Shown: positions 1 to 42,608 of the stretch, in pieces
Position numbering within the stretch: position 1 is the stretch's first letter
Layout of the letters: each line of letters starts with the position of its first letter
Sequence record: JN882298
Length of the DNA: 42,608 nt
Direction: 5' to 3' (one strand)
Origin: Escherichia phage phiKT
Translations under genes and position numbers: made by a program
The notes under the pieces: generated by a model
Database searches by the model: none
The model's input: the letters and a program-made list of their open reading frames with translations, nothing else
What the model was told of the DNA's origin: nothing

Positions 1-1
1 C

Positions 2-427
2 GCTGAAAAGTCACCATACGAAGACTCAGTATATGCTACATGTGCTCGCTATGGCCTTAAGCCCGGAGATAAGTTCAAGGTAATCAACGCAGACCTTTAC
101 AAGGGTTTATCCGTTGGTGATATTGTAACTCTGCGAGAGGACGATGGTTCACCTTGCCCGTACTTTATCCGTGAGGCTACAGGACGGCTGGTATGTATCT
201 GCTTAGCGCGCCTCGTACCAGTGGCGGCTAACCAATCCAATATACGGGCACCCACCGCAACCCTGTCCACAGTGGACCAATTCAAATCAGAGATTGACGC
301 GTTACGTGCCAAGGCTACACAGAAGCGCGACCAGATTGCTCAGCTCTCAGAAGAGATTGCCGGGATTAACATCGCTATCTACAACACACGCAAGAAACTC
401 AAAGCCAGCTTAGACGGGTACATCTGA
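2..427 (+). CDS. Early hypothetical protein, 5'-truncated at the window edge (C-terminal coiled-coil-like segment)
   Basis: Frame 2 is open from the first base to the stop at 425..427; it is in frame with the ORF that runs off the right edge (42283..42608) if the sequence is circular. Confidence 0.5.
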   Translation, partial: AEKSPYEDSVYATCARYGLKPGDKFKVINADLYKGLSVGDIVTLREDDGSPCPYFIREATGRLVCICLARLVPVAANQSNIRAPTATLSTVDQFKSEIDALRAKATQKRDQIAQLSEEIAGINIAIYNTRKKLKASLDGYI

Positions 428-445
428 TGCTCAAAGGTGACAAAC

Positions 446-757
446 ATGAAACCGAATCAAAAGAAAATCCTCACGTACCTGCTATGCTCAGTCGGCCTGT
501 TATGGGCGGTGGCGGGGGCAATGCAAGCGTATGCTTCGACCCATATGCAGCGGGAGACAGTGACGTTCAACAGTCTTTTCAAGTCGGATGGGATGACTAT
601 CAGTGAGTATTGTTCTGTGACATTGCAGGGCAATACACAGATTGTTGAAGCATCCTGTTACGGCATACTGAAACCTACAGTGACGGACTTACAACGCCGC
701 TACCCACTCGTGGCCTTCCACGTGATTATCAATGGCGAGTCACTGAACACTATTTGA
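446..757 (+). CDS. Small early protein with N-terminal signal peptide (predicted secreted/periplasmic)
   Basis: Track ORF 437..757; internal ATG at 446 preceded by AAGGTGA; basic n-region (KPNQKK), hydrophobic h-region (ILTYLLCSVGLLWAVAGA), AYA-S cleavage-like site. Confidence 0.55.
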   Translation: MKPNQKKILTYLLCSVGLLWAVAGAMQAYASTHMQRETVTFNSLFKSDGMTISEYCSVTLQGNTQIVEASCYGILKPTVTDLQRRYPLVAFHVIINGESLNTI

Positions 758-765
758 GGTGTATC

Positions 766-1056
766 ATGGAATTATCTGATGATGAACTGCGCCTGATTCG
801 TCGGGCGCTGGCGTTCGCAGTCCGCCACCTTCACACCTGTGTCGAGGAAGCACGGGATAATCACCGCGTAAAAGAGAAGCTCGACTGTCAGGTCGAGGCA
901 GCACGTTTAGCCACACTATCGGAGAAACTCCATGAGCAACTCATCAAACAACTCAAAGTTAAATCTAAAAACACTACACGAGGAACTGAGGGATGCGGAG
1001 CCAGATGCACTAATCTCTGTGCGGCAGGCGCGTGTCCTAATCGCCAGTCTGATTAA
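766..1056 (+). CDS. Early hypothetical protein (3' portion uncertain)
   Basis: Track ORF 754..1056; ATG at 766 with GAGG 5 nt upstream; C-terminal third is Cys/Gly-rich and overlaps the next gene by ~125 nt. Confidence 0.4.
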   Translation: MELSDDELRLIRRALAFAVRHLHTCVEEARDNHRVKEKLDCQVEAARLATLSEKLHEQLIKQLKVKSKNTTRGTEGCGARCTNLCAAGACPNRQSD

Positions 1057-1258
1057 CCTCCAGAATGTTGTGGTGTCATTGATGGACACCATGGACCATA
1101 ACACCAAAATCATGAACGACTCCCACGCAGCGACGAATGAGAATTTCATCGGGCTGTTAGGCATCTGTAAGGTGCTGGGCCGGGAGTTAAACGTCGAGAT
1201 TAACGGCATCAACGAGGCCACCACAGGCTCCCCATACAACAACAAAACGAGGCACTAA
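932..1258 (+). CDS. Early hypothetical protein
   Basis: ATG at 932 with GGAG 7 nt upstream; protein-like composition. Confidence 0.5.
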   Translation: MSNSSNNSKLNLKTLHEELRDAEPDALISVRQARVLIASLINLQNVVVSLMDTMDHNTKIMNDSHAATNENFIGLLGICKVLGRELNVEINGINEATTGSPYNNKTRH

Positions 1259-1259
1259 C

Positions 1260-1565
1260 ATGAGCGAACGTATATGCGTACCATATGCATGTAAAGGCAA
1301 TCCAGACGTACACACTATCGTAATTCCAGCAGGCTTTATCAGTCTGGAAGACCTCTTGTCCCATGTCGGCTTCCAGCTTGGTATGGGCGGCCAGTTGCTG
1401 GATGAGTTTAACGGCCTTCTGGCACAGGAATACACAGCAGGCAAGCGCGCGCTGGCCGAAGTCCTGAGCCGGGCTACTCATAGCGCGGCGTACACTCCCA
1501 ACATGGAGGATGCGCACCGTATCCTGATGGCTGAAGAATTGGGGTATGCAAATGACCGTGAGTAA
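1260..1565 (+). CDS. Early hypothetical protein
   Basis: ATG 2 nt after the preceding stop, GAGG RBS; 101 aa. Confidence 0.55.
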   Translation: MSERICVPYACKGNPDVHTIVIPAGFISLEDLLSHVGFQLGMGGQLLDEFNGLLAQEYTAGKRALAEVLSRATHSAAYTPNMEDAHRILMAEELGYANDRE

Positions 1566-1656
1566 AGCCATTGGCTGGCTGATAGCCTACGCAGTGTTTT
1601 CTATAGTCGCCAACGTCATCGGCGGCATCTCGTTAATCATGTTCTTGTTAAAGTGA
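1552..1656 (+). CDS. 34-aa hydrophobic micropeptide (single predicted transmembrane helix)
   Basis: ATG overlapping the end of the upstream gene; peptide MTVSKAIGWLIAYAVFSIVANVIGGISLIMFLLK; below the ORF-track size cut-off. Confidence 0.35.
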   Translation: MTVSKAIGWLIAYAVFSIVANVIGGISLIMFLLK

Positions 1657-2923: not shown

Positions 2924-4193
2924 TGAATTTCTCCGTAGTATCCGACATCGCTCTAAGTTCAAAGAGCGCATAGGCACTACGCCGCTGTATCTCTTCGAAG
3001 AGAAAACGAGAGATATTGTTAAGCTAATGAGCCGTTACTTTCGACAGTACAAATCAGCGGAGGTTATAGAGAAAGATGACTTCATCACTTGGATTAATGA
3101 ACTGAAGGGTGAGAAGTTTACGGATGCAGATAAGATTCTCTTTGATGCACTCATGGAAGATTTTGAGTACGACCTGTCCGCCGCCGCCGAGCAATTCCTG
3201 ACGGAGCGGTTGCAGGAGTCCGATTTAGTCTACAAAACCGCCGACCTTATTGAGAAATGGTCGAACGGTGATGAGATTGAAATTATTGAGCAAATGAAAA
3301 TCGTCACCGACAAAGCGGCATTTGGCCGTGCTGACCGGGACGGTATTAAAGTAGTCACAGAGTCGATTGAGGAGATTCTGGAGCACGCCGGGAGCAAGTG
3401 GGGATTCGAGTGGTCATTGCCAATATTAGCTAAGGCCATGCGACCCGCACAGCCGGGAGACATGATTCTCATAGCTGCCCGACCGGACCAAGGGAAGACT
3501 ACATTCATCGGTAACATTGTCCGGCCTTGGCTGGCACAACTGGATGAAATATTTCCCGATGAAGAACGCTGCATTCTCTGGCTCAATAACGAGGGACCGG
3601 GTACTCGTATCAAGCTCCGAAATTACCAATCGGCCCTCGGCCTGACTATCCCAGAAGTGGACCAGATGGCTCATACTCGTGGGATGCTGGACGAGGAATA
3701 CAGGAAGGTGGTAGCCAATGCCGACCGCCTGATTATCCTCGACGTCCACGGCAAGAACACGGCGCAGATTGAACGCAAAATTACGGAATTGAAGCCCGGT
3801 GTTATAGTCTGGGACATGCTGGATAAGGTGAAGTATGTTACAGAGGACGCTTTTAGGAACACTCGCACAGACGAATATCTTGAAGGCTTGTACTCATGGG
3901 TACGCGAATCCGGTGTTATATATGACTGCGTTAACGTCGTATCAACACAGTTATCCGGTGATGCTGAAAATATGCAGTATCCGCACCTAGGAATGCTCAA
4001 GGACTCAAAGACAGGCAAGCAAGGTACGGCTGATGCCATCATTACGTTCGGGTCGGTTGACACTTATCCCCGTACACGATTCATCGGTCTTACTAAAAAT
4101 AAGCTCAATATGGGCCGCGCTACGAGTCGCCTAGGCGAAGTCATATTCGACGGTGCACGTGGCTTAATCACTATGCCAGAGGTAGAGAAATGA
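2910..4193 (+). CDS. DnaB-like replicative DNA helicase
   Basis: Walker A (AARPDQGKTTF) and RecA-fold motifs; GTG start with GGGAGG RBS; overlaps the primase stop. Confidence 0.85.
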   Translation: MSLDSEFLRSIRHRSKFKERIGTTPLYLFEEKTRDIVKLMSRYFRQYKSAEVIEKDDFITWINELKGEKFTDADKILFDALMEDFEYDLSAAAEQFLTERLQESDLVYKTADLIEKWSNGDEIEIIEQMKIVTDKAAFGRADRDGIKVVTESIEEILEHAGSKWGFEWSLPILAKAMRPAQPGDMILIAARPDQGKTTFIGNIVRPWLAQLDEIFPDEERCILWLNNEGPGTRIKLRNYQSALGLTIPEVDQMAHTRGMLDEEYRKVVANADRLIILDVHGKNTAQIERKITELKPGVIVWDMLDKVKYVTEDAFRNTRTDEYLEGLYSWVRESGVIYDCVNVVSTQLSGDAENMQYPHLGMLKDSKTGKQGTADAIITFGSVDTYPRTRFIGLTKNKLNMGRATSRLGEVIFDGARGLITMPEVEK

Positions 4194-4777
4194 TTGATAC
4201 AGTAGTTTTAACGGCATCCGGCCAATACGTGAATATCCTTGCGCCAACCGAGGATGAGATTGACATCCATGATATTGCTCATGCGTTGGCTAATATCAAT
4301 CGGTTCAACGGTCACACCGCTGTACCCTACACGGTAGCAGAGCACTCATTGCGCTGTTCAGCCTTGCTTAAGGCGTGGGGATACACTCCCTCATCTCAGT
4401 TGGCTGGCCTGCTGCATGATGCTACCGAGGCGTATATCGGCGACGTGGCTACCCCACTCAAACAACTGCTGCCAGAGTTCAGAGTCATTGAGAAGAATCT
4501 GGAAAAGGTTATTGAGAAGAAGTTCGACATTATCATTAATGACCGTCCAGAAGTCCATTACGCAGACCTCCAGCTACTGGCATCCGAACGCAAGTACCTG
4601 ATGCCGGAAACGCCTGAGTATGTTTGGGAGATTATCGACGGGATTGACCCGACGACCTACTCCACAGTGACCGGCAACAATCCTAAGTGGGGTGGTCGGA
4701 CGCATAAGGAACTGGTCGGCTGGTTCATTAAACGCTTTGAGCAACTTATCAACGAGGTACACAATGTTAAAAATTGA
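4190..4777 (+). CDS. HD-domain phosphohydrolase (5'-deoxynucleotidase-like)
   Basis: H...HD...D metal-binding pattern (AEHSLRC ... LLHDATEAYIGDV); ATGA overlap with the helicase stop. Confidence 0.7.
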   Translation: MIDTVVLTASGQYVNILAPTEDEIDIHDIAHALANINRFNGHTAVPYTVAEHSLRCSALLKAWGYTPSSQLAGLLHDATEAYIGDVATPLKQLLPEFRVIEKNLEKVIEKKFDIIINDRPEVHYADLQLLASERKYLMPETPEYVWEIIDGIDPTTYSTVTGNNPKWGGRTHKELVGWFIKRFEQLINEVHNVKN

Positions 4778-5057: not shown

Positions 5058-7450
5058 TGTCCTATGTAACGTTCGATTTGGAGACAACGGTCAAATCCTT
5101 GGCTAAACGCAAGGCCAGCCCGTTCCACCCGAACAATTTCATAGTGGCGATTGGTTGGAAACGACAAAACTGCTCTGTTCAGGGTAGTTACAGTAAAACG
5201 GGCGAGCACCATCCCAATTGGTTCGAAGGTCTTTTGGCAGGTACTAAATTACTTGTCGGCCAGAATATCAAATTTGACATTCTCTATGCTATAACCCGGT
5301 CCGAATCGGCATACGCCGCTTGGATGAAATGGGTAGAGGCCGGAGGAAATGTTTGGGATTGCCAGCTTGCCGAGTATTTACTGCGAGGTCAGGAACAATC
5401 AGCCCACATGTTGTCGATGGATGAGATGGTCGAGGAGTACGGCGGGAACACGAAGGTGGATGAAGTCAAAGCCATGTGGGAAGCAGGCTACGATACACCG
5501 GAGATTCCTGAAGACTTGCTGATGCGTTATCTCTGCGGTGAGACAAAGGATGATGGTACTCGCGTGTTCGGCGATATTGAGAACACCGAAGCAATCTTCC
5601 TCGGTCAATTGAAGAAGGCACGTAAGCGCGGCCACCTGAAGTCCATCATGCTTAACATGGGGAGCCTGTTGGCCTCCATAGAGATGGAAAAGAACGGTAT
5701 GGCCGTTGACCTGAAGCTGGGCTTAGAGCAAGCCGAGAAGCTGAAGGAAGCGTGCAACGAACTCCGCGAGAAAATGCAGCAGTACCTGCCAAGCGACCTC
5801 CCTTGCGAGTTTAACTGGGGTTCCGGGCACCACTTATCGGCCCTTATCTTCGGCGGCGCGATTAAGTACAAGCAGAAAGCCGAGATTCTGGATGACGAAG
5901 GCAACAACGTCTACCCGCAGATTAAGGCGGTTGGGTACGAAACAGTGACCGGGGACTTCGTTATACCGGGACACGGTATCTCAGAAGAACGTTTTCAGGA
6001 GATGGTCGAGGCCGGGAACATCGCCACGTACAAGGCTGGGAAGAAGAAGGGCCAATTCCGGTCCAAGCAGGTTAGCATTGATGACCTGTCCCGACCTAAG
6101 ACGAAGATTATGGAGTTCCGGTATAACATGCCGGGGTTCACGGAGCCGGACCCGAAGTGGGAGACGAAGCACGAAGGCGTTTATGCCACGAACGCAGACG
6201 TCATTGAGGAACTGGGAACGCGTGATGTACCGTTCCTGAAAGACCTCACCAAGCTCAACAAAATGGATAAAGACCTGACGACATACTATATCTGCGAAGA
6301 CCCTAAGAAAGAAGGTATGTTCAAAGGTATGTTGACGCTGGTCGGCGATGACGGCATTATCCACGGCAGTATTAACCACACCTCCACAGTGACCGGGCGA
6401 TTCTCTGCGAGCAACCCTAACCTCCAGAACATCCCCCGTGCGGACACTTCTGAAGTTAAGAAGCTGTTCATCTCGCGCTTCGGCGACGACGGCCAGATTA
6501 TTCAGTCTGACTTCTCGTCTCTGGAGATTTACGTTCAGGCATTACTCACAGGTGACAAGCAACTGCTGGCAGACCTGAAGAAAGGTCTGGACATGCACTG
6601 CGTTCGCGTCGCCAGTAAATTCGGGGTGTCTTATGAGGAAGCAGTCAAACGTTGTAAGAAGGATGTTAACGCGCCGGACTACAAGCTATGGAAGTCTCGC
6701 AGGACTGGATGTAAGGAATTTTCATTCCAACGAGCATACGGCGCTGGAGCGGCAGCAGTGGCGAACTCTACGGGGATGTCTATTGAAGACGTGCAGGACC
6801 TTATCAAGTTAGAGGACGAACGTTACCCGGAGATTGAACCATTCTATGCAAGAGTTACAGCAGCAATTAACGAAAGCCGAGTACCAACAAGTCTGTATGT
6901 ACATCATCCAGAGATACGGGGACTGTCTGTCTGCATCGGCAAAGGATTTTATAGAACGCCTGATGGGAAGAAATACACTTACCGAGAGTACCCTGCTCCG
7001 GCTGGTTTTATCAAACGCGGGGGTGCACACGCCTCCTTCTCGCCTCCTGAAATTAAGAACTACATTGTGCAGGGTACAGGTGGCGAGTGGGCGAAAGCTG
7101 CAATGTGGCTTGCAGTCCGCACATTCTATCGCTTCAACAACTTCGGAGGAAAGGCGCTCTTAGTCAACGTAGTCCACGATGCGGTGTATGTAGATGGCCA
7201 CAACGATGTACTCGTAGAGGCATGTGCGGCGCTGGAGGCATGTATGTTTGGTGCTAACGAACTCATGGAGTACCGCTTTGACTGGCAGGTAGATGCGCCA
7301 GTGCCTGCGGAAACAACATTCGGGGTAGCTATGTATTACGAGACTGGCGCGGATACCTTAGACGGCTTTAAGGACAAGGTTAAAGAGATGCGTATGTTAA
7401 ACAGAGAGTTATATTTAGGAGGCTATACCCCGTCATGGGAGAATGTATAG
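5057..7450 (+). CDS. DNA polymerase, family A, with 3'-5' exonuclease domain
   Basis: 797 aa; N-terminal exonuclease motif (FDLETT); Pol I-like palm/fingers signatures; conserved position in T7-like replication module. Confidence 0.9.
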   Translation: MSYVTFDLETTVKSLAKRKASPFHPNNFIVAIGWKRQNCSVQGSYSKTGEHHPNWFEGLLAGTKLLVGQNIKFDILYAITRSESAYAAWMKWVEAGGNVWDCQLAEYLLRGQEQSAHMLSMDEMVEEYGGNTKVDEVKAMWEAGYDTPEIPEDLLMRYLCGETKDDGTRVFGDIENTEAIFLGQLKKARKRGHLKSIMLNMGSLLASIEMEKNGMAVDLKLGLEQAEKLKEACNELREKMQQYLPSDLPCEFNWGSGHHLSALIFGGAIKYKQKAEILDDEGNNVYPQIKAVGYETVTGDFVIPGHGISEERFQEMVEAGNIATYKAGKKKGQFRSKQVSIDDLSRPKTKIMEFRYNMPGFTEPDPKWETKHEGVYATNADVIEELGTRDVPFLKDLTKLNKMDKDLTTYYICEDPKKEGMFKGMLTLVGDDGIIHGSINHTSTVTGRFSASNPNLQNIPRADTSEVKKLFISRFGDDGQIIQSDFSSLEIYVQALLTGDKQLLADLKKGLDMHCVRVASKFGVSYEEAVKRCKKDVNAPDYKLWKSRRTGCKEFSFQRAYGAGAAAVANSTGMSIEDVQDLIKLEDERYPEIEPFYARVTAAINESRVPTSLYVHHPEIRGLSVCIGKGFYRTPDGKKYTYREYPAPAGFIKRGGAHASFSPPEIKNYIVQGTGGEWAKAAMWLAVRTFYRFNNFGGKALLVNVVHDAVYVDGHNDVLVEACAALEACMFGANELMEYRFDWQVDAPVPAETTFGVAMYYETGADTLDGFKDKVKEMRMLNRELYLGGYTPSWENV

Positions 7451-14493: not shown

Positions 14494-14533
14494 GGGTATT
14501 CGTTAAATATGGCTTGAAGCCTTGATATATGGG

Positions 14534-14560
14534 GTTTCCGCACATTATTTTAATAAGGGG
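14534..14560 (+). promoter_or_regulatory. Phage RNAP promoter-like motif, copy 1
   Basis: gtttccgcacattattttaataagggg; near-identical copy at 38018..38044; ends in a TATA-AGGG(AG) element like T7-type promoters. Confidence 0.5.
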
Positions 14561-14576
14561 TCTGGAGGGTGTTAAA

Positions 14577-31093: not shown

Positions 31094-31122
31094 GGTGGGC
31101 TTCGGCCCACCTCTATTTTATT
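31094..31122 (+). terminator. Rho-independent terminator/attenuator before the tail fiber gene
   Basis: 7-bp stem ggtgggc/gcccacc with ttcg loop followed by tctattttatt. Confidence 0.6.
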
Positions 31123-31132
31123 GGAGATTTTG

Positions 31133-33916
31133 ATGGCTATTACGTTTTATGCTACCAACAACTTCACTGGTGATGGTACTACCGTAAACTGGAATATTAA
31201 CTTCGCAGACGGTTACATCGACACCACCGACGTGAAGGCGCGGTATCTGGATAATACCGGGAGCTACGTTGACATCGCTATTTCAAGCGTGGCAGGAAAC
31301 GTAGTAACCATTTCCCCGGCTGTGGCGGACGGTCAGGAGTTCCAAATCTATCGTGATACAGAGAAGCGGTTCCCGCTGGTGGACTTCTCTGACGGTGCAA
31401 TCCTCAACGAGACTAACCTTGACACGCTGGCTACCCAGGCTGTGATGGTATCCGCTGAGGCATTCGACCAATCTAACAACGGTGTACGTATTGCTGGTGA
31501 TTCCTTGACTATCGCGCAAGGTATCGACGCCAAGGCACAGCTGGCTCTGGACAACTCCGAGGCTGCTGTAGCTACAGCGAACGGTATCGACGGTAAAGCG
31601 CAGACGGCATTGAATACCGCCGCCGCCGCTGTCGCCACGGCTAATGCTGCCACATCTACTGCTGCTGGTGCTGTATCTACGGCCAACACCGCACTGTCTA
31701 CTGCCAACGATGCCGCCGATGACGCAGCTACCGCTGTCACTACCGCTAACGCCGCTGTGACTACGGCCAATGCTGCAACCACTACGGCCAACGCCGCTAG
31801 TGCTGCCGCCTCTGCTGCAACGACTACTGCGAACAATGCTGCAAACGACGCTGCTACTGCTGTGTCTACTGCGAATACGGCCTTGTCTACTGCGAACACC
31901 GCATCTACCAACGCCTCTACCGCTGTGTCCACGGCTAACGCCGCTAAGGCTACTGCTGAGGGTATCGAGGCTAAAGCGGATTCTGCTTTGGCAGCTTCTG
32001 CTAACGCTGTGACCACAGCTAACGCAGCTGAGGCTACGGCTAATGCTATCGACGGTAAGGCTACGGACGCACTAAACACTGCTGATGCCGCTGAGGCTAC
32101 GGCTAATACTGCCGCTGCTACTGCGAGTTCGGCTGCTGCTGACGCCAGTACCGCTTTGAGCACAGTTACTGCTGCTGACACAAAGGCACAGACTGCTCTG
32201 GATAATATCGCGTCTCTGGATGCGGCCACCATGAAGAAAGCAGCTAACCTGTCTGATATTGCGGATAAGGCGGCTGCATGGCTTAACGTCCGTCCAATTG
32301 GCTCCACGCCATTGGCAGGCGACCCGGTAGGTGACTACGATGCTGTTACTAAGCGTTGGGTAGAGAACCTGATTAACACAGGTACTGTTGGTCCGACCAT
32401 GAATGGTGTGATGAACTACGGCGTTGGTGATTTTCATCTTCGTGATAGTCGCGCATACATTCAGCCGTATGAGGTTGTATCCGACGGTCAATTACTGAAC
32501 CGCGCTGATTGGCCTGAACTTTGGTCTTATGCGCAAATGTTGTCGCCCATCACCGATGCAGACTGGCTTGCTGACCCGCAAAAGCGCGGCAAGTATTCAC
32601 TAGGTAACGGCGCAACAACATTCCGCGTACCGGACCGCAACGGGGTTCAGGCAGGTTCAATAGCTGCATTGTTTGGCCGTGGTGATGGCGGGGTGTCATC
32701 TAGTGATGGGACAATTCTTGACAGTGCTGCACCAAACATTACAGGCTCATTTGGCCGATTGGTTTACGCGTCAACAGGCACTATTTATGAAGGAAACACA
32801 GGGACAGGTGCCTTCTCTGCTTTCTCACCACAAGCAAAATATAAAAAGATGTCAGACCTATCTTCAATTGATGCTCAGGCAGCGGAATATCCTTCTGGGT
32901 ATGAATTCTTCGCATCAAATTCAAGCCCGGTCTATGGTAGAGGTTCAACAGAAGTCCGACCCAAAGCATTCACTGGTGTTTGGGTGATTCGCGCATCTGG
33001 TGGATTTGTTGCTGCGAATACCCTGTGGAGTGTTATTAATGGCGATGCTACTAAACCCGCTAACAACACAAGTGTTAACGGTGGAGAGATTCAGTCTGAA
33101 TACCGTATTGGTACTCAGGTTGAAGGTAAAACATCTCTGCGATTTGTCGGTACTATCGGTCAGGCTTATGCTGCGCGCCTGAACGTATCAAATAACTCAA
33201 ATACTAATGCCTTTATCTACGATTTCGATGAGTATGGTCGGGTTAACTTCGGCAAACCGGGTGGTGTGATCAAATCTGGTGATATTACTCTGGATATGGC
33301 ATCCAACGGCGATTTCTACGTTACCACAACCCGTTTACGTGTAGAACACCCTACCTCTGGTGGTCAGACTATGGGGATATCCACTCAAGGTGGGGCCAAC
33401 CGTGGTGCTGATCAGGGGTGGTTTGAGCACTGGGGTAACTCCTATGGCGGTGGTTCTGACAAATCTCGTGCAACTGTTGTTGAACTTAAGATTGGTACTG
33501 GTTATGCGTGGTACAGTCAGAAACTAGCGAGTGGCGTATATGAAACCAGATTTGCAAGTGCAATCTATGCAACTGCATTCACTCAAAACTCTGATGAACG
33601 TATCAAGGAAAACATCGAGCGTATTAGCGATCCGTTGGAAAAGATGAAGCAAATTAAAGGTGTTTCATGGAATTTTAAAACGGTTGGTAATGCAAAAGGT
33701 TACGGCTTTATCGCACAGGATGTGGAAAGGGTACTCCCTGAAGCTGTAAGTGTCGGAGGTGGTGAACTGGAACTGACTGACGGTACTAAGGTATCCGATG
33801 TTAAATCGGTAAACACCAGCGGTGTGGCTGCTGCACTCCACCACGAAGCTATCCTAGCTTTGATGGATAAGGTTGAGGCTCTGGAAGCACGCATTGCAGA
33901 ACTAACTTCTCAGTAA
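31133..33916 (+). CDS. Tail fiber protein (T7 gp17-like anchor, Ala/Thr heptad stalk, collar-type receptor-binding region, C-terminal intramolecular chaperone)
   Basis: Track ORF 31121..33916; ATG at 31133 with GGAG RBS; N-terminus (QIYRDTEKRFPLVDFSDGAILNE) resembles the T7 gp17 anchor; tail-collar-like motif (GNGATTFRVPDRNG); last 108 aa (SDERIKENIERISD...) resemble the S74 chaperone domain. Confidence 0.8.
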   Translation: MAITFYATNNFTGDGTTVNWNINFADGYIDTTDVKARYLDNTGSYVDIAISSVAGNVVTISPAVADGQEFQIYRDTEKRFPLVDFSDGAILNETNLDTLATQAVMVSAEAFDQSNNGVRIAGDSLTIAQGIDAKAQLALDNSEAAVATANGIDGKAQTALNTAAAAVATANAATSTAAGAVSTANTALSTANDAADDAATAVTTANAAVTTANAATTTANAASAAASAATTTANNAANDAATAVSTANTALSTANTASTNASTAVSTANAAKATAEGIEAKADSALAASANAVTTANAAEATANAIDGKATDALNTADAAEATANTAAATASSAAADASTALSTVTAADTKAQTALDNIASLDAATMKKAANLSDIADKAAAWLNVRPIGSTPLAGDPVGDYDAVTKRWVENLINTGTVGPTMNGVMNYGVGDFHLRDSRAYIQPYEVVSDGQLLNRADWPELWSYAQMLSPITDADWLADPQKRGKYSLGNGATTFRVPDRNGVQAGSIAALFGRGDGGVSSSDGTILDSAAPNITGSFGRLVYASTGTIYEGNTGTGAFSAFSPQAKYKKMSDLSSIDAQAAEYPSGYEFFASNSSPVYGRGSTEVRPKAFTGVWVIRASGGFVAANTLWSVINGDATKPANNTSVNGGEIQSEYRIGTQVEGKTSLRFVGTIGQAYAARLNVSNNSNTNAFIYDFDEYGRVNFGKPGGVIKSGDITLDMASNGDFYVTTTRLRVEHPTSGGQTMGISTQGGANRGADQGWFEHWGNSYGGGSDKSRATVVELKIGTGYAWYSQKLASGVYETRFASAIYATAFTQNSDERIKENIERISDPLEKMKQIKGVSWNFKTVGNAKGYGFIAQDVERVLPEAVSVGGGELELTDGTKVSDVKSVNTSGVAAALHHEAILALMDKVEALEARIAELTSQ
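31510..32280 (+). repeat. Heptad-coded Ala/Thr repeat tract inside the tail fiber gene
   Basis: Protein shows more than 13 consecutive heptads of the form [ST]TAN.A. plus longer repeated units (ATANGIDGKAQTALNTA-like), from imperfect 21-bp DNA repeats. Confidence 0.7.
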
Positions 33917-36093: not shown

Positions 36094-36329
36094 TGACTAT
36101 TGCTGCACAACTCCCAGACCCGAAGCTCGACGTTAAGGGCGACCGACTGCGTTTCCTGTTGGCCGCTTGTATCAGCGAGTGTAATATCCAAGCAGACAAC
36201 GGTGCGTATGATAAAGGCACCAGCTTCAAAGCCCTGCTTACTGCCGCTGCTGCACTCGTGAAGGTAGCTCCGGTAGAACCTGAAGACCCGGAAGACCCTG
36301 AAGACCCTGAAGACCCTGAAAACCCGTAA
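36093..36329 (+). CDS. Small hypothetical protein with C-terminal PEDPEDPEDPEDPENP repeat
   Basis: TAATG overlap with the terminase stop; C-terminus encoded by five tandem 9-bp units. Confidence 0.4.
   Translation: MTIAAQLPDPKLDVKGDRLRFLLAACISECNIQADNGAYDKGTSFKALLTAAAALVKVAPVEPEDPEDPEDPEDPENP
36283..36327. repeat. 5 x 9-bp tandem repeat (gaagaccc[g/t])
   Basis: Tandem units read directly in the sequence; encodes the (PED)n tail of the 36093..36329 ORF. Confidence 0.85.
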
Positions 36330-36372: not shown

Positions 36373-36660
36373 ATGCGTATCGACGATATCTGCTCACCCG
36401 GTTTTGTACCTAACTCCCACCGTCTTCGTCAGGAGACTGTCCGGGCCATTGCTTTCTGTGAAACCATAGGAAGCGCTGAGAAGGCCGTAGAGCTACAGAA
36501 ATACTTTCGTGAGGCTATCGAATACCTTGACCGAGAAATTGTCTCCAGCGGCTTGCCAGAGAGCGAGAAGCCTATTGTGGATGCTGATGCTGTGTCACCA
36601 TTCGATGAGGAAGAAGTTGTGGCCGAGCCGAAACCTAAAGCCAAAGGAGGCAAGAAGTGA
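36373..36660 (+). CDS. Hypothetical acidic protein upstream of the endolysin
   Basis: Track ORF 36358..36660; ATG at 36373 with GAGGAA RBS; no transmembrane segment seen. Confidence 0.45.
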   Translation: MRIDDICSPGFVPNSHRLRQETVRAIAFCETIGSAEKAVELQKYFREAIEYLDREIVSSGLPESEKPIVDADAVSPFDEEEVVAEPKPKAKGGKK

Positions 36661-37109
36661 ATCTGACCGCAGCGGAGAAGTTAGTTCGACATTTTGAAGG
36701 TCTGAAGTTAGAAGCGTACCTGTGCCCTGCTGGTAAGTGGACTATCGGGTACGGACAGACCAAGGGTATTAAGGAAGGTATGGTGTGGACCAAGGCTCAG
36801 GCCGAAGCAGATATGTCTGCCACTGTCCGACGCTTTGCCGAAGAAGTACGTCAACTGGTCCGCAAGGATACGACCGACGCTGAACTAAGCGCATTCACTT
36901 CTCTGGCCTATAACATCGGTACTCCAAACTTTAAGACGTCCTCTGCTCTGCGTTGGCATAATGCCCGTGAGTCCGCGTCCAAGGTGTGCGCTGGTATCCG
37001 TATGTGGAACAAGGCCACCGTCAATGGTAAGAAGATTATCCTGAAGGGTCTGGTACGTCGCCGAGAGGCTGAATGCTCCGTATACACAACTGGAGACTTT
37101 AATGAGTAA
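36657..37109 (+). CDS. Endolysin, phage lysozyme (GH24 T4-lysozyme-like muramidase)
   Basis: N-terminus MNLTAAEKLVRHFEGLKLEAYLCPAGKWTIGYGQT aligns with the T4 lysozyme catalytic Glu/Asp/Thr region; GTG start overlapping the upstream stop. Confidence 0.85.
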   Translation: MNLTAAEKLVRHFEGLKLEAYLCPAGKWTIGYGQTKGIKEGMVWTKAQAEADMSATVRRFAEEVRQLVRKDTTDAELSAFTSLAYNIGTPNFKTSSALRWHNARESASKVCAGIRMWNKATVNGKKIILKGLVRRREAECSVYTTGDFNE

Positions 37110-37272
37110 ATTCAAGAAATATCTGGGTGCCGCATGGGATTTCACCAAGGAACATGGTGTGACTATCCTGCGTGGTGTGGCTGTCCTCCTTGTAGGTCGT
37201 AAGGTTGGTCGCGTTGCCAACCAGTCCGCCGATGTACTTGATACGGTCATCAAAGGGACTAAGAAGAATTAA
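37102..37272 (+). CDS. 56-aa small membrane protein (possible holin/antiholin-type lysis accessory)
   Basis: ATG overlapping the endolysin end; one hydrophobic segment (GVTILRGVAVLLVG); below the ORF-track cut-off. Confidence 0.35.
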   Translation: MSKFKKYLGAAWDFTKEHGVTILRGVAVLLVGRKVGRVANQSADVLDTVIKGTKKN

Positions 37273-37281
37273 AGGATAGCC

Positions 37282-37665
37282 ATGTTCGAAGGCACCGGGA
37301 ACTACGGTTCCCTTGTGACCACCCTCCTTACGGGAGCAGTGGCGGCTCAAACCTCTTATCAGGTATCCCGTATAGTCACACATGATTCTCTGTTATTAGT
37401 TGGCATCCTCTGCGTCATCGGTATCGTGGTAGGTCTGGGCCATGCTCTCTCAAGCAAGTCCCCTCTCCCATTCCGTCGTATCGTAGGCAAGGTGCTTATG
37501 TCTACTGGCGTGGCCGTTACAGCCGCTGCCGTCTATTACTTCAAACCAAGTACCGACCCGTTAGTCGTCATTGCCATTGGCGCTGGGTTAAGCGTCATGG
37601 GTTCTGGCTGGCTGGAAGAGTTCGTCCGGAACAGAACAGGAACCAAGAAGGATGATGGTAGTTAA
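37282..37665 (+). CDS. Holin-like multi-pass membrane protein
   Basis: 127 aa with about three hydrophobic segments and a charged C-terminal tail; adjacent to the endolysin. Confidence 0.5.
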   Translation: MFEGTGNYGSLVTTLLTGAVAAQTSYQVSRIVTHDSLLLVGILCVIGIVVGLGHALSSKSPLPFRRIVGKVLMSTGVAVTAAAVYYFKPSTDPLVVIAIGAGLSVMGSGWLEEFVRNRTGTKKDDGS

Positions 37666-37854: not shown

Positions 37855-37886
37855 AGGTCGCGTTTCCCCCGTAGGCCCGGCCTTCT

Positions 37887-37958
37887 GGATGGCTGAATGG
37901 CTGGATGGATGGATGGCTGGACGGCTAGACGTTTAGACGGCTAAATGGCCAAATGACC
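37887..37958. repeat. Tandem array of nine imperfect 8-bp units (consensus ggatggct)
   Basis: ggatggct gaatggct ggatggat ggatggct ggacggct agacgttt agacggct aaatggcc aaatgacc read in strict 8-nt register. Confidence 0.8.
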
Positions 37959-38017
37959 GTAAAAAAGGGCCGTGTGCACTGATAGGGTCAATCGGGCTGT
38001 AGGTCGCGCCAACCGGA

Positions 38018-38044
38018 GTTTCCGCACATTACTTTATAAGGGAG
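38018..38044 (+). promoter_or_regulatory. Phage RNAP promoter-like motif, copy 2
   Basis: gtttccgcacattactttataagggag; matches 14534..14560 except for one substitution and one indel. Confidence 0.5.
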
Positions 38045-38134
38045 CTTGTAAGGTGTCTGGCGGCGATCCGTCTGACGACGGGAGAAGGGAAGAGACGTGG
38101 GGTATCTATCTTTTTGTGATTAGTGTTAGTTGTG

Positions 38135-42282: not shown

Positions 42283-42608
42283 ATGACAAGCATCAATCCG
42301 GTAGACCTGACCACTTTAGGCGCACGAGTAACCGACCCGGCACAGTTGACCGAAGGCCGCTGGTATGCGGTACGCGTTAACTGTAGAGGCTATATCCCAC
42401 TGGTACACGCCAAATACTTGGGTAGGAAAGGTCGGTATTCACATGCGTTTGAGGTGTGCGATGAGGATCATCTCGCGTTAAAGCGTTCTCTGGGCCTCGC
42501 CAAGCGCATCCACCGCGACAACGGTAGTATCCACTCGGGGAAGATTGATGGCGGCGGTATCTGCGAGATATTCAAGTTTAAGCAGGTGGTGGATGGTCCC
42601 GTAAGCAC
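42283..42608 (+). CDS. Early hypothetical protein, 3'-truncated at the window edge
   Basis: ATG at 42283, open to the last base; frame is continuous with 2..427 if the sequence is circular. Confidence 0.45.
   Translation, partial: MTSINPVDLTTLGARVTDPAQLTEGRWYAVRVNCRGYIPLVHAKYLGRKGRYSHAFEVCDEDHLALKRSLGLAKRIHRDNGSIHSGKIDGGGICEIFKFKQVVDGPVS

Follow-up and report, generated by a model that had tools for sequence, protein, structure and literature searches.

The genome of Escherichia phage phiKT (sequence record JN882298) raises a question close to its first letter: what would a virulent podophage do with a small protein that appears to be made for export? The gene concerned lies at 446..757 of the window, by which is meant the whole stretch of DNA analysed here (42,608 base pairs, bp), the full genome of a virulent podophage in circularly permuted form, with 95.7% DNA identity to Escherichia phage PGT2 (Autographiviridae, Ermolevavirus, phiKT group). 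The genes of the window are on the + strand throughout, as are all features of the window given below. The product of 446..757 begins with a leader of signal-peptide architecture, and the 73-residue domain that follows is very probably located in the periplasm, where it would most plausibly prevent or alter steps that take place at the envelope of the cell.

The gene and its leader

The coding sequence at 446..757 (stop included) starts with ATG 446, ends with TGA 755-757 and specifies a preprotein of 103 residues, which bears out a sequence-only reading of this DNA that had placed a gene for about 103 residues here. A Shine-Dalgarno sequence, AAGGTG (434..439), can be read from the sequence 6 nucleotides (nt) 5' of the ATG. 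The alternative start GTG 437 falls within this Shine-Dalgarno sequence, and the annotation of PGT2 uses the same ATG. The orthologue in PGT2 is gp12 (YP_009795444; 5151..5462, annotated 'hypothetical protein'), with 95% amino acid identity. All 7 non-synonymous changes relative to PGT2 are found in the signal-peptide part (residues 9-26), and the 73 codons of the mature part show 0 non-synonymous and 3 synonymous changes. Comparison of the mature part with a more distant relative, L002 (ENA ERZ27235534, k119_18991), gives an omega of 0.38, indicative of purifying selection. Since the open reading frame (ORF) is conserved in 35 distinct sequences, with purifying selection, 446..757 is a real gene. 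The papers found on phiKT/PGT2, LIMEzero, Bonnellvirus and the accessory-gene screens make no mention of the protein.

The leader has the three parts of a Sec-type signal peptide. The n-region, MKPNQKK (residues 1-7; 446..466), has a net charge of +3 and is followed by an h-region of 19 uncharged, mostly hydrophobic residues (residues 8-26, ILTYLLCSVGLLWAVAGAM; 467..523) and by the c-region QAYA (residues 27-30; 524..535), after which a cut by signal peptidase I is predicted at Ala30 according to the (-3,-1) rule (AYA-ST, the hyphen marking the cut). The sequence-only reading had described a basic n-region, a hydrophobic core of 18 residues and an AYA-S cleavage-like site. The basic n-region is as described and AYA-S is found at residues 28-31; the core is also present, but the uncharged stretch counts 19 residues rather than 18. 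When a crude rule that asks for a basic n-region, a hydrophobic stretch and a small-x-small site was applied to all six-frame ORFs of at least 60 residues, it selected 5 of 173, and the four others are nested in longer genes or lie on the non-coding strand. Shuffled versions of the 103-residue protein satisfy the same rule in 1.3% of cases.

The relatives of the protein share this plan. The n-region is positive, with a net charge of at least +1, in 34 of the 35 family members, the exception being P0030, whose N-terminus was apparently truncated by the gene call. A small-x-Ala site is present in 35/35 members at position 21-36 (median 27), and relatives have ATA-S, VFA-A, ALA-E, VHA-A, ALA-A or AHA-N at the same position. 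In every lineage, Ala occupies -1 and a small or aliphatic residue -3, and the site is found 3-7 residues past the core, directly before a polar stretch. The leaders are not alignable between lineages, yet their charge and hydrophobicity are kept. An example is provided by L002, in which an HNH endonuclease gene (HNH_3) at 4039-4659 has been inserted directly 5' of the homologue, separating it from the repeat-protein gene further 5', and overlaps the 5' end of the homologue. The gene call for this homologue is shortened to 70 residues, and the full ORF starts at GTG 4511 behind a GAGGTGG Shine-Dalgarno sequence. The resulting leader is a different sequence, MKRNKLLLLSGVILVACLVVGTSRAHL, that is still basic and then hydrophobic. 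Retention of these properties without retention of sequence indicates that the leader behaves as a targeting signal, and this is the strongest argument for export. Together with two mature-domain cysteines common to the 35 relatives, the leader plan strongly supports the Sec-type signal peptide and the periplasmic targeting that the sequence-only reading had claimed.

Two other kinds of export signal were considered and rejected. A lipoprotein (signal peptidase II) signal would be marked by a lipobox, and the family has no conserved [LVI][ASTVI][GAS]C motif. Many members have no leader cysteine (P0006, P0008, P0013, P0014, P0018 and P0019), Cys14 of the window protein is preceded by Y-L-L, and a chance LVAC is found in the L002 variant only. 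A Tat signal would carry a twin-arginine motif (S/T-R-R-x-F-L-K) and was rejected, as neither the window protein nor the relatives compared have RR in their n-regions.

With or without cleavage, the 73-residue domain would face the periplasm. If the leader were left uncut, the product would be a type II (N-in, C-out) inner-membrane protein with its domain tethered at the periplasmic face, an explanation that concerns topology alone and is compatible with a function directed at either a phage or a host target. Several findings favor such an anchor and weigh against cleavage. The core is 18-19 residues long in the window's own and the LIMEzero-like subgroups, which is a membrane-spanning length, and a rough Hessa-scale sum over the best 19-residue stretch is approximately zero or negative and so compatible with insertion. 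Residues 3-32 form a single unbroken helix in the AlphaFold2 model, albeit with low confidence. Moreover, AxA sites are expected by chance in an Ala-rich context: when tested against local-composition shuffles, of which 55-87% per lineage contain a small-x-Ala site, the site is not significant (joint probability ~0.1 over nine lineages). P0004 and L002 lack AYA altogether and keep SRA-H alone. Consequently, the case for cleavage is built on the whole architecture and not on the AxA motif. This architecture includes strongly hydrophobic cores of 11-15 residues in most lineages, among them the homologous Bonnellvirus members and several metagenomic lineages (including P0008, P0010 and P0014); a core of this length cannot span a bilayer as an anchor would, and is usual in signal peptides that are cleaved. 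The -3/-1 pattern common to every lineage also argues against an anchor, as does the interruption of the helix before the site by Gly24 and Gln27. Based on the shuffle result and the core lengths by lineage, cleavage by signal peptidase I is considered likely and an uncleaved type II anchor unlikely. A complete failure of export, with the N-terminus buried or cytoplasmic, or with an ORF that is no real gene, is scarcely credible. The first full-length AlphaFold2 model, computed from six sequences, is consistent with such a failure in that it was poor (predicted local distance difference test, pLDDT, 56), and it was superseded by a run on the mature domain. The purifying selection on the ORF, the leader plan and cysteine pair shared by the 35 relatives, and the low rate at which shuffles satisfy the leader rule all speak against it. 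Furthermore, leaders that diverge freely while charge and hydrophobicity are kept are the signature of a targeting signal and not of a folded core.

The mature domain and its family

The mature domain (residues 31-103, 73 residues; 536..754) is predicted by AlphaFold2 to have a beta1-beta2-beta3-alpha-beta4-beta5 topology, in which three antiparallel strands are followed by a 15-residue helix and a C-terminal hairpin. The model of the mature part, computed from a 14-sequence alignment, has a pLDDT of 91.6 and a predicted template-modelling (TM) score (pTM) of 0.77. Independent models of relatives in BFVD superpose on it with the same fold (TM 0.98 for PGT2, 0.81 for PTXU04, and 0.71 for both LIMEzero and Lidtsur). 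A Foldseek comparison with solved structures returned no match below an E value of 0.1, and a profile search of all PDB chain sequences, at E values up to 10, matched nothing but an unrelated PstS chain.

All 35 members have exactly two cysteines in the mature domain, spaced 15-19 residues apart. In the window protein these are Cys56 (611..613) and Cys71 (656..658), both invariant in alignments A2-A4 and each presumed to be half of a disulfide. Because the cysteines are strictly conserved as a pair and the domain would reside in the periplasm, we infer a Cys56-Cys71 disulfide. The turn of the C-terminal beta hairpin, Ile95-Asn96-Gly97 (728..736), is likewise invariant, with Leu-Asp-Gly in its place in PTXU04, and the protein ends three to four residues past Ile-Asn-Gly across the family. 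The residues that are invariant family-wide are limited to the two cysteines, Thr64 and Ile-Asn-Gly, all of which are apparently structural. The family has no conserved polar or catalytic residue, which suggests that the domain is probably a binder and not an enzyme.

The family comprises 35 distinct sequences of 94-111 residues with 10-30% identity between lineages. A word-indexed search identified five close relatives only. With an alignment of these close relatives as the query, exhaustive HMMER searching through 1.84 billion representatives added four more distant sequences of 100-110 residues, and further profile searches extended the set to approximately 30 protein clusters. A structure search of predicted viral proteins identified LIMEzero ORF11 (Pantoea phage, Waewaevirus), Lidtsur gp13 (Escherichia phage, Bonnellvirus) and PTXU04_00062 (Escherichia phage, Xuquatrovirus, a 61.6-kilobase (kb) podophage outside the Autographiviridae). 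The links to LIMEzero, Lidtsur and PTXU04 were confirmed by reading the genes and with tblastn and hhalign, and the hhalign comparison with PTXU04_00062 gave a probability of 90.7% and an E value of 1.3e-6 with both cysteines aligned. IMG/VR contributed three Bonnellvirus-like loci only (L014-L016, one of them identical to Lidtsur), in addition to the PGT2 genome itself. The plan of a hydrophobic stretch, a small-x-Ala site, a domain of ~73-77 residues and a C-terminal hairpin is shared by 35/35 members.

The sources of these sequences are virulent podophages of Enterobacterales (Ermolevavirus-like phages, Waewaevirus, Bonnellvirus and, remotely, Xuquatrovirus), and the host genera are Escherichia, Pantoea, Kosakonia and Cronobacter. 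All long contigs with a family gene are phage-like and 42-45 kb in length (61.6 kb for PTXU04), and in each case the genes around it are small ones of the left-end or early type. When 185,579 representative bacterial genomes were scanned with patterns, no prophage or cellular relative was detected within the limited sensitivity of such scans, for which the broad alignment, A4, is too divergent. The family thus looks confined to virulent Enterobacterales phages as judged by these searches. Searches of Pfam-A, PHROGs v4 and NCBIfam 20 gave no match to the window protein. When 13 family members were searched, a single match to an unannotated PHROG was obtained (phrog_7036, E 1.4e-5), and the Pfam matches were noise (E > 0.03). 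This apparently phage-only family has not been described before, and both the family and its predicted fold are new. The kind of protein is already known, namely an accessory protein of a virulent phage that carries a signal peptide, and in the present case it is not an isolated ORF.

Candidate roles at the cell envelope

The sequence-only reading had named superinfection exclusion and envelope processes as the roles of known examples, and both are plausible here. It is proposed that the protein acts as a periplasmic exclusion factor. Early in infection, residues 1-30 would direct the protein across the inner membrane in the manner of a Sec-type signal peptide of the signal peptidase I class, and a cut after Ala30 would most likely set the 73-residue beta3-alpha-beta2 domain free in the periplasm. 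There, Cys56 and Cys71 would be joined in a single disulfide by the host Dsb system. Finally, the domain would bind the periplasm-exposed ejection machinery of a second, related phage and thereby keep the incoming DNA out of the cytoplasm. Candidate targets are the SLT (lytic transglycosylase) domain of a gp16-like internal protein or a gp14-like channel protein; the phage itself carries a 1400-residue gp16-like protein with an N-terminal SLT domain, plus a T7 gp14-like protein. Taken as a whole, with its leading functional guess included, this explanation is tentative and is held with somewhat less than even confidence. The role itself, superinfection exclusion of the T4 Spackle type, is the favored one but a reasoned guess, and is doubtful. 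That family members bind the ejectosome of incoming related phages, for example through its SLT domain, and so form the first Spackle-like system in T7-supergroup phages, is a shade less probable again.

The closest architectural analogue is T4 Spackle (Sp, gp61.3), an early, periplasmic protein of 97 residues with a 75-residue mature form and one disulfide that binds the gp5 tail lysozyme of superinfecting phage and inhibits it (PMC7677548). Both proteins are precursors of ~100 residues with a periplasmic targeting signal (97 and 75 residues for Spackle, 103 and a predicted 73 here). Both are also products of early genes of virulent coliphages, with a presumed early timing for 446..757, and both are small, with one disulfide (presumed here), non-enzymatic (probably so here) and dispensable in the laboratory (here as judged from the remote PTXU04 homologue). 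In contrast, Spackle is an alpha-helical bundle whereas the domain of 446..757 is predicted to be beta3-alpha-beta2, and the target of Spackle, the myophage gp5 tail lysozyme, has no counterpart here, the nearest analogue being the SLT domain of the gp16-like protein. As the fold differs and there is no homology, the protein is not a member of the Spackle family, although it may work like one.

The proposal that the protein is accessory and not core draws on the remote homologue PTXU04_00062, which was scored 'Not Fit' in a genome-wide CRISPRi-ART knock-down and is thus dispensable on laboratory E. coli (PMC11879866, supplementary file 16). This dispensability fits an accessory role. The same protein stayed 'Unknown' after HHpred and structure comparison (PMC11879866, supplementary file 8).

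Early expression is inferred from gene position and from the annotation of LIMEzero. The gene is the 12th from the left end of the genome (the left physical end is at approximately window position 37,900), ~5.1 kb in, among a run of small genes 5' of the primase gene, and in the annotated LIMEzero genome ORF11 is followed, just before the primase gene, by a terminator and the first phage-specific promoter. The sole repeated promoter-like motif of the window is a 42-nt sequence, GGRGTTTCCGCACATTAYTTTA..., which occurs twice (14531..14572, just after the RNA polymerase gene, and 38015..38056, near the left genome end) and is a candidate promoter for the phage RNA polymerase; it is not near 446..757. 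Scans for sigma-70 promoters and terminators near 446..757 gave background levels, and given this result and the distance of the repeated motif, the timing remains positional. Besides these scans, several findings tell against an early exclusion factor of the Spackle type. Spackle (e.g., 6X6O, PMC7677548) was not matched in the PDB profile or fold searches. No conserved neighbouring gene across genera links the family to ejection proteins. In addition, the dispensability was observed for a remote homologue and under laboratory conditions only.

The same exported domain could be directed at a host envelope target, such as a peptidoglycan hydrolase, a periplasmic protease, the Tol-Pal/TonB machinery, lipopolysaccharide/O-antigen or another receptor-related factor. 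In this case the protein would preserve the integrity of the infected cell, make infection more efficient or cover receptors, the last of which would spare progeny from loss on debris according to the logic of T5 Llp. This explanation is possible, if doubtful. It is consistent with the periplasmic location of the domain, with hosts that are all Enterobacterales with similar envelopes, and with the laboratory dispensability, which fits a conditionally useful host-directed factor equally well. The lipoproteins of the T5 Llp and Cor type are also small, phage-encoded and exported early, and they act by binding; Llp has a disulfide as well. They differ from 446..757 in that they have a lipobox cysteine and an outer-membrane anchor, and the family has no conserved lipobox, so the protein is not an outer-membrane lipoprotein of this type. 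Bacterial periplasmic lysozyme inhibitors (Ivy, MliC/PliC, PliG, PliI) form a known class of proteins (PMC7677548). These small, periplasmic, beta-rich binders inhibit muramidases, an activity of the kind proposed here against the incoming SLT domain, but Pfam, NCBIfam and PDB searches gave no match between 446..757 and known inhibitor families, and its family is found in phage genomes only. Closer examination of the three E. coli-infecting lineages (window/PGT2, Lidtsur and PTXU04), with 10-18% identity, reveals no polar surface residue common to them, which would be unexpected if all bound the same conserved host protein. Identity is 84-87% within Bonnellvirus across four host genera and 10-33% between phage genera that share E. 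coli, and the binding surfaces differ between phage genera with this host in common. As read from the sequences, the pattern of surfaces and identities fits a phage partner specific to each lineage no less well than a conserved host target.

A role in the timing of lysis, as a periplasmic antiholin-like protein in the manner of T4 RI or as a modulator of the endolysin or disruptin, was also weighed and appears very unlikely. T4 RI also has ~100 residues, and its hydrophobic N-terminal segment takes to the periplasm a small domain whose binding partner there is another phage protein. However, RI has an uncleaved signal-anchor-release (SAR) segment and a helical domain, and it requires a holin with a large periplasmic domain. 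The lysis cassette of the window (36657..37665) is of the phiKT type, with an endolysin, a cationic peptide and a holin, and no spanin was seen in it. This cassette is unusual, which speaks for such a role, in that it includes a 56-residue peptide with a net charge of +7 (37102..37272) that fits the description of the phiKT gp28 'disruptin'. The T4-lysozyme-like endolysin (36657..37109) is soluble and has no SAR segment, and the holin (37282..37665) is a multi-transmembrane protein (Phage_holin_3_2) without a sizeable periplasmic domain. The gene itself is not near the lysis genes but in the block of small genes at the left end, ~10 kb of circular map from the cassette. Furthermore, the family occurs in LIMEzero, a phage with a u-spanin (PMC6139136), as well as in phiKT-like phages that lack spanins, and therefore does not track the lysis system. 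The low probability given to lysis timing is based on the properties of the holin and endolysin and on this distribution. Two related candidates were rejected. The protein is not an i-spanin or u-spanin, as it has a globular alpha/beta domain, no lipobox and no C-terminal transmembrane domain, is distant from the lysis genes and has a homologue in LIMEzero, a phage already equipped with a u-spanin; a link to the spanin-less, disruptin-based lysis system was set aside because of the occurrence of the family in LIMEzero.

Genome setting and wider meaning

The gene immediately 5' of 446..757 starts at 42283..42608 and crosses the window junction to continue at 1..427 (stop 425-427), from which it follows that the window is a circular permutation of the genome. 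Its product (250 residues in all) has an N-terminal domain, a variable number of ~80-residue repeats (GDKFxVV...IVTL..DDGSxCPYF...RLAP) and a C-terminal coiled coil. The number of repeats is 0 in PGT2 (169 residues), 1 in the window and 3 or more in a metagenomic relative whose protein has at least 518 residues. Relatives of this gene are found at L001 4623-5132, L002 3299-4039, L003 4783-5889, L004 4674-6014 and L006 3-1559. The modular repeat protein adjoins the 5' side of a family member only in Ermolevavirus-like phages and so is no conserved partner of the 446..757 product. In LIMEzero and Bonnellvirus, the 5' neighbour of the family gene encodes an unrelated protein of 110 residues. Comparison of neighbours across genera found no conserved partner gene, as the upstream and downstream genes both differ. 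In L006, a gene for a 66-residue protein with two predicted transmembrane helices (1842-2042) lies directly 3' of the family member and was not seen in other lineages.

Several features of the surrounding genome were also noted. Two ORFs 3' of 446..757, at 766..1056 (96 residues) and 932..1258 (108 residues), are in different frames and overlap by 125 nt. Both are kept in PGT2 and L002, of which the PGT2 annotation has the first alone and the metagenomic gene caller the second alone. An unannotated ORF at 1546..1656 encodes 36 wholly hydrophobic residues, MQMTVSKAIGWLIAYAVFSIVANVIGGISLIMFLLK, with 94% amino acid identity in PGT2 (6251-6358, unannotated there as well) and 81% in L002, and is probably a gene for a small membrane peptide. 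The RNA polymerase gene is located after the DNA polymerase gene. Within the tail fibre gene (31121..33916), long imperfect repeats with 21/42-nt periodicity (31598..32131) encode Ala/Thr/Asn-rich heptads, flanked by the T7-tail-fibre domain on the N-terminal side and the Peptidase_S74 chaperone domain on the C-terminal side. Short tandem repeats occur at 36263-36325 (9-nt units) and at 37886-37933 (8-nt units, near the genome end).

As it stands, 446..757 represents a family of exported ORFans that is well supported but no surprise. The virulent-phage proteins known to act in the periplasm are few, namely T4 Sp, Imm and RI and T5 Llp, and each of these revealed phage control of entry, exclusion or lysis at the envelope. 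The present family is compact and testable, with ~35 sequences from four genera that include phages growing on E. coli K-12. If its members bind a host envelope protein, they would represent a new small inhibitor of that target. If they block ejection, as proposed here, they would give access to the periplasmic stage of DNA delivery by podophages, which is poorly understood, and could explain interference between related phages in cocktails.

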